A stretch of 38,472 nt of DNA, from IMG/VR virus record IMGVR_UViG_3300027711_000008, positions 1 to 38,472 of that record. One strand, 5' to 3'. This document shows positions 7,169 through 38,096 of this stretch, in pieces. Position 1 is the stretch's first letter, and the number at the start of each line of letters is the position of its first letter. The notes beneath the pieces were generated by a model, which did no database searches, was not told the DNA's origin, and was given only the letters and a program-made list of their open reading frames with translations. This DNA is from a virus (taxonomy: Duplodnaviria; Caudoviricetes). The position numbers and the translations under genes are program-made.

Positions 7169-7557
7169 TGGGGCTACGCTCTGAAATACAGGCCGATATT
7201 GCTGAGGCATTCGACACCGACTTAGCGGACGCTGTGCAGACGTTTTCAGGTTCGCGAACAGTGCAAGGCAGCTATGACCCGGCAACCGGCACCAGCACAA
7301 CTACCACTGTGACTTATACAGGGCGCGGGGTTTTTGGCTCTTTCAAGGCTGAAGAGCTGAATCAGCATATTGTCAGTACTGATGAGAAGCTATACGGCAT
7401 TTTGCAAAACGAGCTTTTGGTGAACGACGAGCAGGGCCAGCCAACCTCCGTGCCAGCGACCCCTGAGACTAGCGACTTGATCAGTGGCAAGCGGGTTGTT
7501 GCCGTGATGCGTGACCCAGCTTCAGCAACGTGGACAGTAGCCCTACGAAAAACCTGA
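7168..7557 (+). CDS. Head closure/neck protein
   Basis: TAATG coupling to upstream gene; GSYDPATG and DPASATW motifs. Confidence 0.6.
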   Translation: MGLRSEIQADIAEAFDTDLADAVQTFSGSRTVQGSYDPATGTSTTTTVTYTGRGVFGSFKAEELNQHIVSTDEKLYGILQNELLVNDEQGQPTSVPATPETSDLISGKRVVAVMRDPASATWTVALRKT

Positions 7558-7619
7558 TACAATTGTTGCGTGCGGCTAGACCGGCCAGTCGAAAAGGGTA
7601 TCGCCTACCCCTGCCGCAC
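7555..7619 (+). promoter_or_regulatory. Extended -10 promoter plus structured RNA leader of the endonuclease gene
   Basis: TGATACAAT at 7555-7563, then multi-stem element GTGCGGC...GCCGCAC 7570-7619. Confidence 0.5.
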
Positions 7620-7649
7620 TCTTTCAAGGCGATAACACGAGGCGATGTT

Positions 7650-8282
7650 ATGAAGAAATGCACGAATTGTCAGAAGGTTAAGCCGTTTTCGGAATTCTGG
7701 AAAAGGAAGCAGTCTCTGGACGGACTCCAGCACAGATGCAGGGAGTGCTTGAGCAAAAGGTTTTCGGAATATCGCAAATCCAAGCGAGGGATAATCAACC
7801 AGATTTATCGGAACCAGGTTTCAAGCGCAAAGCAAAGAGGTATGGCGCTGCCGGAATATTCCATAGCAGAGTTCTATGACTGGATTATTTCAAAAAGAGC
7901 GTTTCATCGCATTTACAATGAGTGGGTGAATAGCGGATACAAGGAAACTGAAGTACCTAGTTGCGACAGAGTTAATGACAGAATCAGTTACAGGTTTGAC
8001 AATATAAGGGTCGTGGCCTGGAAGGATAATTGGCATAAGATCCATGATGACGTAAAGTCAGGCAGGAACACGAAGAGATGCACTGCTGTAGATCAGCTTT
8101 CTTTAGATGGAAGGCTTGTCCAGAGGCACCACTCTATGTCGGCCGCTGCAAGATCAGTGAAAGGCAGCCAAGGAACGATTTGGAAAGCCGTAAATAATCA
8201 ATCGATTCAGATGTATGGTTATCGATGGCGATATTCTCTGGAAGAAAATGATAACTCAGAGATCATTAAAAAATCCGCGTAA
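7650..8282 (+). CDS. Free-standing HNH-like (homing) endonuclease with N-terminal Zn finger and C-terminal NUMOD1-like HTH
   Basis: CxxC..CxxC, PSCDRVND..Y.FDNIRVV..KDN betabetaalpha-like motif, VDQLSLDG...SMSAAARSV...YGYRWRY; AT-richer than flanks; interrupts neck gene cluster. Confidence 0.7.
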   Translation: MKKCTNCQKVKPFSEFWKRKQSLDGLQHRCRECLSKRFSEYRKSKRGIINQIYRNQVSSAKQRGMALPEYSIAEFYDWIISKRAFHRIYNEWVNSGYKETEVPSCDRVNDRISYRFDNIRVVAWKDNWHKIHDDVKSGRNTKRCTAVDQLSLDGRLVQRHHSMSAAARSVKGSQGTIWKAVNNQSIQMYGYRWRYSLEENDNSEIIKKSA

Positions 8283-21073: not shown

Positions 21074-21278
21074 CTGAGCCCTCCTGCTTTATGAGGTGTG
21101 CAACAGCGGCCTGTGTAGATGGATTGCACATTATCTCAGCGCCGCAAATCGTCTTAATTGGCTTGATGCAATTTGCATAACCGTCAATCATTGTCGTAGC
21201 GAGTCTTATTGACGGACTGGGGTATTCACTTATAAACGCCTTAACTTCAACGGCGCAGTCATATCTTAGTTGTGCCAT
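21063..21278 (-). CDS. Hypothetical protein
   Basis: Start MAQLRYD after GGAGG repeat; coupled on both sides. Confidence 0.6.
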   Translation of the reverse strand: MAQLRYDCAVEVKAFISEYPSPSIRLATTMIDGYANCIKPIKTICGAEIMCNPSTQAAVAHLIKQEGSGDD

Positions 21279-21850
21279 CACTCGCCCTCCTGTGGTGGTT
21301 GTGGTATTTGAAGCCAGAGCGTTACCGCGCGATGCGGATCGTTTGCGAACCATTCGCTACCCGTGTCTGCGCAAACATCGACATAATCCAACTCATAACC
21401 GTCTACTCCGGGGATGCTCGTCAGAACCTCAAGGTCTGCATCCGGCAGTAAATCATCGACGCTAATCCACTCCGGCACTGCCTGAGCCTTTGGTGGGTGG
21501 GTGTAGCCTTCCAGAACATCCTCACCTTGCTGCGCTATTTCCCATAATGCCGGGCTGCGCTGAACCCGATTCAATAGGCCCAGCTGCACAAGCATGTCCA
21601 GCCAGTGGCGGCCAATATCAACATCCTGTCCATCCTCGGCGCACACGTCGAAACGCCGCAGCTTCTCGATGATCTTGGTGGCGAATTTCGGGAGCGCCAC
21701 CGGCTCCGCATCACCCTGAGCGCGGTCTTCCATATGTTGCTTTGCTAACTCCCAGTCGGATCTCAAGATTGTTGCTCGTTCAACGTCAATACTATTTGTG
21801 CTTGTAAATTGCCGCTGGATTTTCTCAAACGCCTCTCTAATATCACTCAT
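21278..21850 (-). CDS. Modular protein with C-terminal DUF551-like domain
   Basis: RAQGDAEPV / YTHPP / VPEWISVDDLLP...VTLWLQIPQPP. Confidence 0.7.
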   Translation of the reverse strand: MSDIREAFEKIQRQFTSTNSIDVERATILRSDWELAKQHMEDRAQGDAEPVALPKFATKIIEKLRRFDVCAEDGQDVDIGRHWLDMLVQLGLLNRVQRSPALWEIAQQGEDVLEGYTHPPKAQAVPEWISVDDLLPDADLEVLTSIPGVDGYELDYVDVCADTGSEWFANDPHRAVTLWLQIPQPPQEGE

Positions 21851-22055
21851 CGCCTTCGCCCTCCTGTGGTTCTCGAATCTCGACTTCGCCAAATCTCACG
21901 CAAAAATGATTTCCTGACGCTGCGTGCTCAAAAACAAAAAGCTGGTCTGTCGCAAACAGCAGCCTTGTCTTAACCCAGACTGACCTGAACTTAACCCCGA
22001 CGCTGCGTATTTCACACGTCTCGCCAGGCCTCGGAATGAAAGTTGAAATCATCAC
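21843..22055 (-). CDS. Hypothetical protein
   Basis: Coupled small ORF between two copies of the junction repeat. Confidence 0.55.
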   Translation of the reverse strand: MMISTFIPRPGETCEIRSVGVKFRSVWVKTRLLFATDQLFVFEHAASGNHFCVRFGEVEIREPQEGEGDE

Positions 22056-22612
22056 TCGCCCTCCTGTGGTGGTTGTGGGGCTACGTCTAGCAGTGCACGG
22101 GCTCTAGACATCATTGCCTTGTGCTTATACGGCGGATCTTCGTCATAGTCCATTTGATAGATTCGCATAGCCTCAATCAGTTCTTCCAAGCACTCTTTCC
22201 ACCCCTCCGTCACTCCGGCGCTTGGTGGGTGGGTGTAGAGCTGTGACCATTCAAAGCGATCACTAATCTCCGACATCAAGTTGCTATACTTGCTCTCATC
22301 GTCGCTGTTGCTATCATGCAGGTTGCATATAAGCTCACTCTCTACAGCGCACCACGCAACGCAGACCATTGCCTCAGTATTTGAGTCGTCGAACCCACGA
22401 ACAAGGTAGCGCCCCGGCCTGTGTGGTTTTGGTGTCCATACCGGCTCCGCATCACCCTGAGCGCGGGCTTCCAGCAACTCCACCGCCGCATCAATCATCC
22501 TCCCCAACTCCTCAGGCAAAATGCCCGCCTCGTCCATAGTCCGTTCGTCGTCGCCGCGCCGCCATGCGTTGTATTTGCGCAGGTAGGCGGTAATCTCTCT
22601 AACACCACTCAT
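22052..22612 (-). CDS. Modular hypothetical protein
   Basis: YNAWRRG N-module; RAQGDAEPV, LYTHPP, APQPPQEGE linkers. Confidence 0.7.
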   Translation of the reverse strand: MSGVREITAYLRKYNAWRRGDDERTMDEAGILPEELGRMIDAAVELLEARAQGDAEPVWTPKPHRPGRYLVRGFDDSNTEAMVCVAWCAVESELICNLHDSNSDDESKYSNLMSEISDRFEWSQLYTHPPSAGVTEGWKECLEELIEAMRIYQMDYDEDPPYKHKAMMSRARALLDVAPQPPQEGE

Positions 22613-23575: not shown

Positions 23576-23605
23576 AAAAAGCCCTCCGTAGAGGGCATTA
23601 TATCA
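23576..23605 (-). promoter_or_regulatory. Extended -10 promoter and RBS-sequestering/terminator hairpin for endonuclease
   Basis: TGATATAAT (23605-23597), then GCCCTC-TACG-GAGGGC-TTTTT-ATG. Confidence 0.7.
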
Positions 23606-23618
23606 TTGAAAGGTATGT

Positions 23619-24320
23619 TTAGAAAGGAATCAATTATGTTCAGTTAAGGGCGCTAACCTTAACCCGCCTTTCGGCAGCTACCTGTTTCCAGGCAGATCAG
23701 ACCATATCATCACCTACTTGAGGTGGCCCCCGCTTCCACTCGCTTGAGTGTACGCCTTACGGCTGGTCGTTGAACGTTCCCGTTTAGGGCTTCGCTGCTG
23801 ATTGTCTTCGGCTTTATCCGGTCAGAGTTCCCAGCAATTCAAGGGCTTTTCACTGCCGCATCGCTACGGCAGGCGACATTCATTTATCGTCATCAAAATC
23901 ATCTACCGGGGCCAAGCCTCCGCCCGCGCCAGTCGGGGCTGGATTGTTCTGCTGATACTGCTGCTGCGGGCGCTGTGCCGGTTGCTGTGGTTGCGCCTGC
24001 TGGCCTTGCGGCTGGGGACCAACGAGGCTGATCTCGCTAATGCGCAGCGTTACCGAAAAGCCCTGCGTGCCATCGTTTTTCTGGTATTGGCGCGTGCCAA
24101 GCTCACCCGTTACGGCGACCTGCTGGCCTTTAGTGAGGTACTGTATGAGGCCGGATTCGGCGCGCTTGCCGAACAGGGCGCAATCGATCCAAACGGTTTG
24201 TTTGTTGTCACCAAAACCGCTATCAACGGCCAGTGCGATACCGGCAACGGGCGTGCCGTTGGCGGTGTGGTTTACTTGGGCATCACGGCCAATGCGGCCG
24301 ACGGCGGTAAATACGTTCAT
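23619..24320 (-). CDS. ssb: Single-stranded DNA-binding protein, intron-split: join(24320-23886, 23630-23619), 148 aa
   Basis: OB fold (GRIGRD...WIDCALFGKRAE...LTKGQQVAVTGEL), Q/P-rich linker, acidic tail DDFDDD completed by IPF in exon 2. Confidence 0.93.
23631..23885 (-). ncRNA. Group I self-splicing intron (IA-like, no internal ORF) in ssb
   Basis: P (AAUUGCUGGGAA), Q (AAUCAGCAG), R (GUUCAACGACCA), S (AUGAUAUGGUC) elements; P1 U.G pair at 5' splice site, P10, GNRA-capped P2/P9, terminal G; removal restores DDD-IPF-stop. Confidence 0.9.
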
Positions 24321-25198
24321 TTTGAGATCCTTACAGTCCATGAGGTTGTTGCTTGCTTGCGAAACTCATCAGGGTTCAGCCCGGATGCTTTAGCAAGGGC
24401 TTCGGTATCGACTGAGCCCTGTCGGGTAGTCGGGTAGGCCATGAGGCCGCAGCCCTTCGACTTTTTGCCCTCGGCCATTTTGATGAGCGCTTTCTTGAGC
24501 GCGTCTTGTCGTTTTTTGAGCGCCTTCATCTCGCCGTCAATTTCGAGGTATTCGGCGGCATGGTTCGCCCACGCCTCATCCTCTGACATATCGCGTTCGA
24601 GCGGTTCAAGGTGCGGGTTCTCGCCTTCTGGCAGGGTAATCGCGGCCTGGTAGTCGGCCATGAACGCCTCAAGCTCGGGCATGCGCTTTTCTAGCCAGCC
24701 CGCTTCGGCTTCAACCGTTTGCAGGCGGTGCGCATTGGGTGCCCAGGCGAAGTAATCCCAAGTGCCCCGGCCAGTGACAGCCATGCAAAGTTGGATTTGA
24801 GCCATGTAGTGCGGCTGATCTTCAATCGCCTTCAGATTGCCGGAGTACGGACACTTGATCTCAACGCCGTGATCGTCGTTTACGAGCCCGTCAGGGCTTG
24901 CAGCCAGCCATTCGTGTTCGGGGTGCACGATTAGCCCGACCTCATCCACGATATGGCCGGTGACAGCTTCGTACTCGCTCAGAGCGTCGGCTTCGTGCTC
25001 GGTGCCGTACTCGGTTGCCACGTTGCCCTGAAACTCCTTCTCAACCCCGAAGAGCTCCCGCACCATCTCCCGCAACACGTCGTCGCGTGTGGTGTATGGG
25101 TTCAGGCCAAGGATTGAGCCGATGCGGCTGCCGGTGATCCGGCCAACTCGCTGGGCAAACCATGCTTCACTTCTTTGCTCTGCTGGTGCGTTCATCAC
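24317..25198 (-). CDS. YqaJ / lambda-exonuclease family recombination nuclease
   Basis: EQRSEAW...R.GRITGS, G..HE, ASPDG, EIKCP, Y.AQIQ motifs. Confidence 0.92.
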   Translation of the reverse strand: MMNAPAEQRSEAWFAQRVGRITGSRIGSILGLNPYTTRDDVLREMVRELFGVEKEFQGNVATEYGTEHEADALSEYEAVTGHIVDEVGLIVHPEHEWLAASPDGLVNDDHGVEIKCPYSGNLKAIEDQPHYMAQIQLCMAVTGRGTWDYFAWAPNAHRLQTVEAEAGWLEKRMPELEAFMADYQAAITLPEGENPHLEPLERDMSEDEAWANHAAEYLEIDGEMKALKKRQDALKKALIKMAEGKKSKGCGLMAYPTTRQGSVDTEALAKASGLNPDEFRKQATTSWTVRISK

Positions 25199-36837: not shown

Positions 36838-37039
36838 CAACATGTACTGGCGTCACCGTCGCAGGTTAGCGTTTGTCGCAATGACGGCCTTGGTAACAAC
36901 ACTCGGCGCTGCTATCGCGGGCTTTATAAGACCAGAGGCGATGCCGTTGATTGAGGGTCTTTCTTGGACGTTCACGGCGATAGTGGTCAGCTACTACGGC
37001 AACAATGCTTTTGAAGCGTTCGCGAATAGACCAAAATGA
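36818..37039 (+). CDS. Putative holin (2 TM)
   Basis: Two hydrophobic segments, basic N-terminus, in lysis cassette. Confidence 0.6.
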   Translation: MNNPPDNNMYWRHRRRLAFVAMTALVTTLGAAIAGFIRPEAMPLIEGLSWTFTAIVVSYYGNNAFEAFANRPK

Positions 37040-37410
37040 TACTCGGACGAATCAAGATGATTGCATTGGCGATTGCAGGCACAGCATTCCTTGGTCTTGG
37101 TGCTTTGTCTTGGTGGCTACACGAAAACAACCAGGCGCTCGTCTCAGAACAGCAAAGGCTCAAACAAACAAACACAGCGCTGGCAGACTCAGCCGAGAAT
37201 CAAAAGGCCGTTGCCGACACTCTCGCCGCCGACATCAGCAAGCGCGACGATCTGGCACAAAGAGCGATACAGGCCCGAGACGAGGCCGATAAACGACTCA
37301 ACCGAGTAAGGCAGCAACTACATGACGCACTGGAAGCAGATCGCTGTGCTCGTGAGCCTCATCCCGCTGCTCTCGGTGACTGGCTGCGCAAGCACTCAGA
37401 CGGTCTATAA
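37036..37410 (+). CDS. i-spanin (Rz-like)
   Basis: N-terminal TM, coiled coil, C-terminal Cys; overlaps o-spanin. Confidence 0.75.
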   Translation: MILGRIKMIALAIAGTAFLGLGALSWWLHENNQALVSEQQRLKQTNTALADSAENQKAVADTLAADISKRDDLAQRAIQARDEADKRLNRVRQQLHDALEADRCAREPHPAALGDWLRKHSDGL

Positions 37411-37437
37411 GACCAACACGATCTATCGCAACCCTCC
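37311..37437. repeat. Exact 127-bp direct repeat, copy 2
   Basis: Identical to 1-127. Confidence 0.95.
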
Positions 37438-37588
37438 CGCCTTTCTGCTGGCTGACTGCCCAATTCCTGAGTACACCGGCACGATCTGGGAAGATGTTGC
37501 CGCGTATACGGGAGAGGTACTAACCATGCTGAGCATCTGCAACACAGATAAGGAATTGCTGAGGGATTGGGTGAGCACGCATGAGTAA
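37322..37588 (+). CDS. o-spanin (Rz1-like lipoprotein), allele B
   Basis: Same N-terminus as 12-278, diverged C-terminal half. Confidence 0.8.
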   Translation: MTHWKQIAVLVSLIPLLSVTGCASTQTVYKTNTIYRNPPAFLLADCPIPEYTGTIWEDVAAYTGEVLTMLSICNTDKELLRDWVSTHE

Positions 37589-38096
37589 GCTAACCCCAAA
37601 ACAACAGCGCTTTGTCGAAGAGTACCTTATCGACTTAAACGCTACTCAGGCTGCAATCAGGGCTGGATATAGCAAGAAAACGGCCTACAGAACAGGCGCT
37701 GATAACCTCAAGAAACCTCAAATTGCCGAATTGCTTGAAAAAAGATCATCTGAAAGATCTGGAAGAACTCAGACTGACGCTGATTATGTTCTTACTCGGC
37801 TTCGCGAGATCGACGAACTGGATATTGCCGACATACTAGATGACGCTGGCAAAGTAAAACCTGTCACTCAGTGGCCGAAGCCGTGGCGCCAGTCTATTAC
37901 AGGCGCGGACCTGCACGAGCTTCAGGTGGGCGACGTAATGACCGTTGTCCGCAAGATCAAGTGGCCGGACAAGCTGCGCACCCTTGAGCTGATAGGCAAG
38001 CACGTTAGCGTAAAAGCGTTTGAGGAGTCGCAGCAGGGCGGGTCTGAGGATCTGGCCAAGGCACTTTCAGATCTGGCCGACAAGCTACCAGGATGA
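37581..38096 (+). CDS. terS: Terminase small subunit, allele B (Terminase_2 family)
   Basis: LTPKQQRFVEEYLIDLNATQAAIRAGYS...KIKWPDKLRTLELIGKH. Confidence 0.92.
   Translation: MSKLTPKQQRFVEEYLIDLNATQAAIRAGYSKKTAYRTGADNLKKPQIAELLEKRSSERSGRTQTDADYVLTRLREIDELDIADILDDAGKVKPVTQWPKPWRQSITGADLHELQVGDVMTVVRKIKWPDKLRTLELIGKHVSVKAFEESQQGGSEDLAKALSDLADKLPG

Follow-up and report, generated by a model that had tools for sequence, protein, structure and literature searches.

A predicted group I intron splits the tip codons of a phage ssb gene and lies beside a putative nuclease gene

Introduction

Why does the ssb reading frame of a phage stop just short of the codons for the protein's C-terminal tip, and what keeps the intervening DNA in place? 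In bacterial SSB the tip is where host DNA-processing factors such as SbcB dock, according to the portion cited of bioRxiv 10.64898/2026.04.29.721553. We analysed a virus record of 38,472 bases, called the window here, in which siphovirus-type head, tail, replication and lysis genes are present. An initial annotation, made from the letters alone, had placed a 255-nt insert with a terminal G between the DDD and the Ile-Pro-Phe-stop codons of ssb and had predicted either a tip-less 146-aa or a full 148-aa SSB. All checked coordinates hold, and the unspliced and predicted spliced frames agree with these lengths. It had also suggested that splicing could act as a switch, an idea that fares worse below. 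It had overlooked an adjacent predicted nuclease gene, which gives the likeliest reason for the intron's presence here, and from one genome it had no view of the intron's recurrence in unrelated gene families.

Results

The divided ssb gene

The ssb gene lies on the minus strand, downstream of two recombination genes in one operon.

25761-25195, minus: Erf-like annealing protein gene, upstream of ssb
25198-24317, minus: RecE-like exonuclease gene, upstream of ssb
24320-23886, minus: ssb exon 1, 145 codons, with an OB fold, a Q/P-rich linker and a DDFDDD end
23885-23631, minus: predicted group I intron, 255 nt, IA-type periphery, terminal G
23880-23882, minus: in-frame TGA within the P1 region, which terminates the unspliced ssb frame
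23630-23619, minus: ssb exon 2, 12 nt, Ile-Pro-Phe-stop

The exon 1 protein matches PF00436 at 72.6 bits and TIGR00621 at 80.7 bits (cut-off 53.95), and its PHROG match is phrog_44. An alternative in-frame ATG lies upstream at 24341; the start at 24320 has a Shine-Dalgarno-like AAGGA, and homologues align from its methionine. Unspliced, the frame encodes 146 aa ending in DDDK. The spliced product would have 148 aa and end in DDFDDDIPF. Across both strands of the 38-kb window there is a single Ile-Pro-Phe-stop codon run, and it immediately follows the terminal G of the intron. Comparison with intron-less ssb alleles bears the insertion out. Of 35 ssb loci one is this phage itself, and all 34 others have an uninterrupted xPF tip, terminal in 31 and followed by an extension in 3.

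Elsewhere in the window, 88-aa Rz-like spanin genes lie at both ends (12-278 and 37322-37588), as do two different terminase small subunit matches (614-964 and 37581-38096). The similar modules at 12-964 and 37036-38096 could be a terminal overlap between variants or a chimeric assembly. Two pairs of direct repeats, each about 750 bp apart among small early genes, are possible recombination points of a gene cassette array: one of 34 bp (97%; 21699-21732 and 22440-22473) and one of 29 bp (100%; 21276-21304 and 22050-22078).

Structure of the insert

By every feature testable by computation, the insert is a group I intron. The Rfam covariance model RF00028 matches minus-strand positions 23678-23895 at 80.4 bits (gathering score 50, E 4.6e-19), the sole gathering-level Rfam match in the whole window. 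The 255 nt hold no ORF of 60 aa; an intron-encoded homing endonuclease is absent. The predicted elements are as follows.

23881-23874, minus: internal guide sequence, pairs with the exon 1 end (P1) and the exon 2 start (P10)
23889-23886/23877-23874, minus: P1, 4 bp, U.G at the splice site
23881-23878/23630-23627, minus: P10, 4 bp
23853-23872, minus: P2 hairpin, GNRA loop; 8/8 pairs changed on both sides across the family described below
23846-23840 with 23732-23726, minus: P3, 7 bp; encloses P4-P6, the P7 5' strand, P7.1 and P7.2
23768-23764 with 23704-23700, minus: P7, holds the predicted guanosine-binding G-C pair
23763-23754, minus: P7.1, forms in the window sequence
23750-23737, minus: P7.2, forms in the window sequence
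23725-23711, minus: P8
23695-23643, minus: P9 (GAAA loop), P9.1 and P9.2

Every helix named in the initial annotation forms in the window sequence, as do P4 and P6; only the length of P3 needed amending, from 6 bp to 7. The proposed IA-like build also stands, with the P7.1 and P7.2 hairpins, a feature of subgroup IA2, present between P7 and the P3 3' strand. The 3' part of the intron is 74-75% identical to the T4 td intron, and one family member is 75% identical to Twort introns. Folding energy is modest on its own (z-score -2.0, with 8 of 200 shuffles equally good), so the evidence is the covariance model together with covariation.

A family of introns at the tip codons

Relatives were gathered by blastn against annotated phages and by pattern scans, the metagenome scan covering 42 of 64 parts. 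At least 18 full-length introns of 254-344 nt, including the window's, interrupt the tip at DDD/IPF; this and the other family counts are lower bounds, because several scans covered some of their parts only and patterns missed variants, and biased ones, because the patterns and the blastn selection favoured xPF-stop ends and near-duplicates are included (the locus pairs L086/L153 and L070/L189 are near-identical). Four further introns at this site are cut by contig ends, and phage helene 12B3 has an additional copy identical to that of L060. The Rfam gathering score is passed by 15 of the 18; L113, L556 and L557 fall below it and match only a profile built in this analysis, of which L113 is a seed. 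A second insertion site, one codon upstream at DD/DIPF, holds three introns, at these approximate coordinates.

L561:2748-3071: DD/DIPF intron, 76 bits with Rfam
L569:1812-2121: DD/DIPF intron
L570:1825-2148: DD/DIPF intron

The last exon of L569 runs beyond IPF into a 14-residue extension.

Several tip introns are found in cultured Vibrio and Pseudoalteromonas phages, and the Vibrio form is covered to at least 80% in 35 phage records, many of them near-clonal. In GenBank the host CDS ends at the intron and the tip-less protein is on record. The CDSs of phages H101, eugene 12A10 and 184E37.3a all stop there, in keeping with the claim that such an intron is invisible to ORF callers. Three V. 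crassostreae phage records carry an Intron_gpI auto-label with the last exon left out. In Vibrio phage P018-4 (L557:about 540-1760), the 407-codon host gene 5' of the intron is absent from the GenBank annotation.

The family shares the features that splicing would need at both ends. All 18 full-length introns have a terminal G, and all are followed by IPF-stop in varying codons (Ile ATT/ATC, Pro CCT/CCG/CCC, Phe TTC/TTT, stop TAA/TGA). The unspliced frames stop within 0-8 codons in every case, and their tail is not conserved.

Thirteen introns were aligned, with some rows misaligned, by one column in P3 and P4. Both sides changed in 38 of 68 named pairs, against a shuffle mean of 27.9 and with none of 500 shuffles reaching that count. 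Pairing holds in 87% of cells, and in 35-45% with slid partners. These controls lean favourable because the rows are relatives and the window sequence supplied the structure. The covariation looked for in P3 and P7 is there, with both-side changes in 5/7 and 1/5 pairs; P8 has 5/5 and P6 1/3. P7.2 is poorly aligned across the family, with 58% paired. The U.G of P1 is kept in all 12 rows with letters, and the guanosine-site G-C, the first P7 pair past the bulged base, is invariant (13/13). A P7 C-G pair becomes U-A in 7 of the 13 introns, and the pair preceding the bulge, as read from the alignment, changes from A-U to G-C as the bulge changes from C to A. Covariation of the bulge with the preceding P7 pair is a rule of the group I guanosine site.

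The guide pairings vary. P1 is reduced to 3 pairs in the GUCC guide type, to which 5 of the 18 introns belong, and a G.A mismatch stands at the start of P10 in the Vibrio type. We rejected the GUCC guide as compensation for an exon change; a GNRA-capped P1 extension favours the other register, with a 3-bp P1. On the precedent of group I introns, splicing of the ssb intron is very probable.

A bacterial genome scan matched 19 stretches, none a tip intron, with a pattern blind to variants such as L569 and L570. In plasmids there were 4 matches, all weak and partial. Patterns anchored at the 5' end, run on 23/64 and 5/64 parts, returned mostly chance matches and no new tip intron, and the four matches to the upstream-site (DD/DIPF) pattern were all non-intron. 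Candidates with LPF/VPF/EPF-type 3' ends (12 with profile overlap, 7 without) were set aside with no acidic SSB-type tail upstream, as introns of other genes, tRNA introns or chance; L191 is real.

In a core tree of 19 tip introns and 34 other introns, the tip introns fall in several clusters among introns of other genes. On the starred branches alone, the main site needs 3 changes or more; one clade has a p-AU of 0.075 (bootstrap not settled), so a single origin of the tip introns is not rejected.

Other introns and signatures turned up alongside. Small-family proteins P0130, P0155 and P0198 end in DDDK or DDDKQNVA, the unspliced signature, and are predicted further intron carriers. Group I-like introns in L235 (Pseudoalteromonas arctica) and L155 apparently interrupt a tRNA gene and have an unusually long 5' part. 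One phage gene at L497:1999-2579 (a contig shared with L260) holds two related group I introns separated by about 80 nt, and one of them has the exon-end and guide pairing of the tip intron.

Host proteins

The exon 1 proteins form three groups without a BLAST link, and the tip is their sole common feature. Among the 18 intron host genes, 5 encode PF00436 SSBs, 10 encode phrog_2544 proteins, 1 belongs to a 102-aa orphan family (that of L067) and 2 were too short to be placed. Intron-free homologues of the other two host families have an acidic tip ending in PF or PW in 98/120 and 86/120 cases, and most of the others have PF plus an extension. An extension of 1-16 residues past xPF occurs in many of the tip-bearing proteins (P0002-P0241, and loci L012, L013 and L025), with 20/120 in the phrog_2544-like set.

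The model of the phrog_2544 host protein (pLDDT 86) has PrgE as its best match, a weak one of OB type (Z 6.0, rmsd 4.4, 117 aligned). With Foldseek there was none at E 0.001. Many of its weaker structural matches are what we take to be OB-fold proteins. On this model the phrog_2544 host proteins are likely SSB-like. The small L067 family has a beta-rich model (pLDDT 74; best structural match Z 2.3), with no Pfam or PHROG match and no usable fold match. An Atlas search returned viral clusters without names.

The adjacent predicted nuclease and its spacer

Four features follow exon 2 on the same strand.

23608-23618, minus: degenerate second copy of the tip-coding motif, immediately past the stop; a possible operator or scar of an insertion
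23597-23605, minus: TGnTATAAT, promoter-like extended -10 site of the nuclease gene, not in the two-hexamer scan
23581-23596, minus: GC hairpin with U-run, terminator-like, which hides the nuclease GGAGG (23587-23583)
23575-23102, minus: free-standing predicted nuclease, 157 aa, starts 43 nt past exon 2

The ORF matches phrog_2340 'endonuclease' at E 6e-41 and has a GC content of 48%, compared with 55% for the window. Its protein has an N-terminal Cys4 and a C-terminal CxxC...HGHHDDY...WLCxxCHxxWH, with Cys/His invariant in the family, a motif that we take to be HNH-like; the prediction is of a zinc-finger/HNH-like nuclease. No Pfam, NCBIfam or PDB match reached a useful level, and 1 of 27 family members has a weak HNH_2 match (E 0.055). 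We call it a nuclease because of the PHROG 2340 match and the motif, presumably that of HNH enzymes. A second free-standing nuclease-like ORF at 7530-8282 (plus strand; phrog_1035 'endonuclease VII') is flanked by head-closure and neck genes. It is distantly related to the tip nuclease (hhalign probability 96%) and by eye resembles the ORFs behind the introns in L556 and L570.

The nuclease keeps company with the tip. There were 56 homologue loci, of which 52 were counted after leaving out the window's own and 3 with less than 150 nt upstream. In 43 of these 52 the gene stands directly behind an acidic-xPF tip, 14 exactly and 29 with one extra residue (near-duplicates included), and the nine exceptional loci are among the weakest matches. 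By eye, the upstream genes belong to several families. The intron is present in 0/55 other nuclease-homologue loci, so the nuclease lives mostly without it. Conversely, the nuclease stands in 6 of the 34 intron-free ssb loci. Directly downstream of the 18 introns are 7 matches to the nuclease-family profile and 3 phrog_13389 proteins, with neither in 8. PHROG assigns phrog_13389 no function; its motif alone makes it a putative second nuclease. Against homing, the intron-free, nuclease-bearing alleles L383, L401 and L417 have an intact DDIPF-stop, where self-cutting would be expected.

The spacer features also travel with the nuclease. A second CCNTTY copy after the stop is present in 19/32 nuclease-bearing loci and 0/19 without the nuclease (p 1e-5), and the extended -10 in 19/32 and 2/19; the p-values for both are inflated because the loci are related. 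The 32 loci are the 43 tip-adjacent ones thinned by hand for near-duplicates, and the 19 remain of the 34 once 6 loci with the nuclease, 2 suspected of it, 2 with an extended tail and 5 near-duplicates are taken out. When transcription starts within the hairpin, the RNA is predicted to be unfolded. Operators and RBS hairpins comparable to this spacer are described for T4 homing endonuclease genes in the parts cited of PMC2988022.

Signs of intron movement

Short tracts of high identity, which may reflect co-conversion, surround the splice site in otherwise dissimilar DNA. With the L067 intron, which sits in the unrelated 102-aa gene, the window intron has 93% identity, and the DNA shared is only 23909-23572, from 24 nt 5' of the splice site to the nuclease start codon. 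The window intron is 91% identical to the L096 intron, in a gene whose protein is 31% identical, and there only 23909-23618 is shared, ending with exon 2. The introns of L086 and L153 are identical, the SSBs that hold them are 33% alike, and a 1.7-kb stretch of 96% identity starts 54 nt 5' of the site. In the gene body, phages helene 12B3 and eugene 12A10 are 53-69% alike; the figure rises to 99-100% about 175 nt ahead of the splice site and stays there across the intron and the next gene. The shared tract of these last two pairs extends further downstream, and exchange of the ssb gene body accounts for it no less well than homing.

Introns also differ between closely related hosts. In L036/L561 and L557/L570 the host proteins are 96% identical and carry different introns at sites 3 nt apart. 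L557 and L558 have proteins 78.5% identical and introns only 52% alike. Of four further Vibrio relatives, one has an upstream-site intron and three have none, and gp68 of ICP1 also has an intact tip.

Vibrio phage K470 (L562:2734-3447) has the phrog_13389 cassette without an intron, 96% identical from the first base of exon 2. It has an extra Leu codon exactly at the intron junction, and two cassette-free relatives have an intact DDIPF. This single case is a candidate naturally immune allele. At L067:3091-3368 the nuclease promoter, hairpin and start codon are kept and an unrelated ORF follows, signals without their gene that suggest a clean loss of the nuclease gene.

Discussion

Proposed pathway

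We think it probable, from sequence comparison, that this is a selfish intron, moved by a free-standing nuclease (collaborative homing) and kept by the importance of the tip. The intron is expected to splice by group I chemistry. Guanosine would attack at the U.G of P1 (step 1), and P10 would then guide ligation at the terminal G (step 2). Ribosomes on unspliced RNA would stop one codon into the intron. During co-infection, the nuclease family would cut intron-free alleles at or near the acidic-IPF tip codons (step 3). Repair from the carrier would copy the intron and the nuclease gene together (step 4), and the intron, by disrupting the nuclease target, would protect its own genome. The target would be a short peptide motif rather than a fold, so the intron could pass between unrelated genes. 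It could persist after loss of the nuclease because only an exact deletion would keep the tip. That insertion in a critical site prevents loss is a general logic of selfish elements, as set out in the sections cited of PMC2988022. By analogy with T4 I-TevI and mobE, the hairpin over the ribosome-binding site may hold the nuclease down, its own promoter may release it, and it may repress itself at the second motif copy. Provided that the intron splices, its spread by the adjacent predicted nuclease is likely.

Other readings of the locus

An intron that splices could instead have spread passively, by recombination at the conserved tip or by reverse splicing, with the nuclease an independent tenant. 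The 8 of 18 intron loci that have no adjoining nuclease would fit this, as would the 55 of 55 other nuclease-homologue loci that have no intron, the shared tracts that are also compatible with gene-body swaps, and the recombination operon (Erf/exonuclease) upstream. We nevertheless regard it as unlikely. A putative nuclease stands beside 10/18 intron loci, compared with a window-nuclease match in 6/34 intron-free ssb loci, and the promoter, hairpin and start codon retained in L067 point to gene loss. Passive spread also offers no drive behind repeated replacement at one site, and evidence for mobility by reverse splicing is circumstantial according to the portion cited of a review (PMC3984707).

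The initial annotation's switch, a domesticated intron that regulates production of the tip, is improbable. It has some appeal, since unspliced RNA gives an almost complete protein that lacks the tip only, and several Vibrio and Pseudoalteromonas phages keep the intron without a nuclease. Moreover, a phage SSB-like protein ending in FDDDIPF triggers DRT10 defence, although the escape mutations quoted lie outside the tip (both from the part cited of bioRxiv 10.64898/2026.04.29.721553). Against it, the intron is sporadic, different intron types replace each other in 96%-identical genes, no aptamer or other Rfam element lies nearby, and the unspliced tail is not conserved (0-8 residues). Group I introns of bacteria and phages commonly have such an early in-frame stop, which the passages cited from PMC3984707 tie to intron folding. 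Finally, a dead relic with the tip-less SSB in use, for which one could cite the OB fold complete within exon 1, is very improbable given an intact core, guide sequence and terminal G, compensatory changes throughout the family and an exon 2 IPF-stop kept under synonymous change.

Significance

Homing beside a nuclease, our preferred reading, has a broader and more tentative extension. The tip codons may be a battleground across protein families, where a widespread family of free-standing nucleases homes on the codons of a five-residue motif in any protein that bears it, and introns serve as both immunity and passengers. This would include several separate group I lineages colonising two adjacent sites in the motif. 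If true, a short linear motif, and not a gene, would here define homing, tips and their neighbours would be shuffled among unrelated replication genes, and tip production in carriers would depend on RNA splicing.

In line with the initial suggestion that an ssb intron may be undescribed, we found none in a literature search of mostly open papers; survey tables in supplements could list some. Word counts of 'ssb' in PMC3984707 and of 'SSB' in PMC10448857 are 0, and in the portion cited of PMC5746245 the intron described sits in td. SSB-type genes, with an exon of just three codons, would join the genes known to harbour phage group I introns. The element would be a selfish one that tracks a short peptide motif across unrelated proteins. 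Annotation is corrected as well, H101, eugene 12A10 and 184E37.3a having been deposited with the tip-less protein. Phage SSBs use the tip to recruit host enzymes and are able to set off defence systems, so relatives in culture, with and without the intron, allow a direct test of tip function and of target sharing between nuclease and intron.

Comparison with known systems

The predicted spliced product has the same tip as E. coli SSB (...DFDDDIPF) and phage mimics such as Bas52_0087. In those proteins the tip is coded without interruption, whereas in the window an intron splits it.

As an intron, the element shares its core, P7.1/P7.2 periphery and in-frame stop just inside with the IA2 phage introns (T4 td, nrdB and nrdD; Twort). 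Unlike them, it interrupts an SSB-type gene three (or four) codons before the stop, with a last exon of 12-15 nt. The tip introns further differ in being ORF-less and in occupying unrelated protein families with only a short motif in common.

The T4 SSB, gp32, is not a bacterial-type DDDIPF SSB. T4 segG is a free-standing GIY-YIG homing endonuclease gene between genes 32 and 59 that targets gene 32 (PMC2988022, in the part cited). Both it and the putative window nuclease adjoin a phage ssb gene, at which segG is aimed and the window nuclease would be, as selfish elements; segG differs in belonging to another nuclease family and in having no intron.

The cyanophage psbA intron is reportedly paired with a free-standing endonuclease, in work said to be that of Zeng et al. 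in 2009. Intron and nuclease in the window would work like such a collaborative-homing pair, with the nuclease activity a prediction. The resemblance lies in an ORF-less intron beside a free-standing putative nuclease gene and in short tracts of identity that may reflect co-conversion. Precedents for collaborative homing, operators and RBS hairpins, and the known pairs (cyanophage psbA, T3/T7-like phages, ICP1 terL with T5orf172, and T4 mobE), are given in the sections cited of PMC3984707, PMC2988022 and PMC10448857. The known pairs act within one conserved gene family. At loci of the window type, in contrast, the site consists of the codons for a five-residue motif that several unrelated proteins have; there are two insertion sites, and the putative nucleases belong to more than one family.
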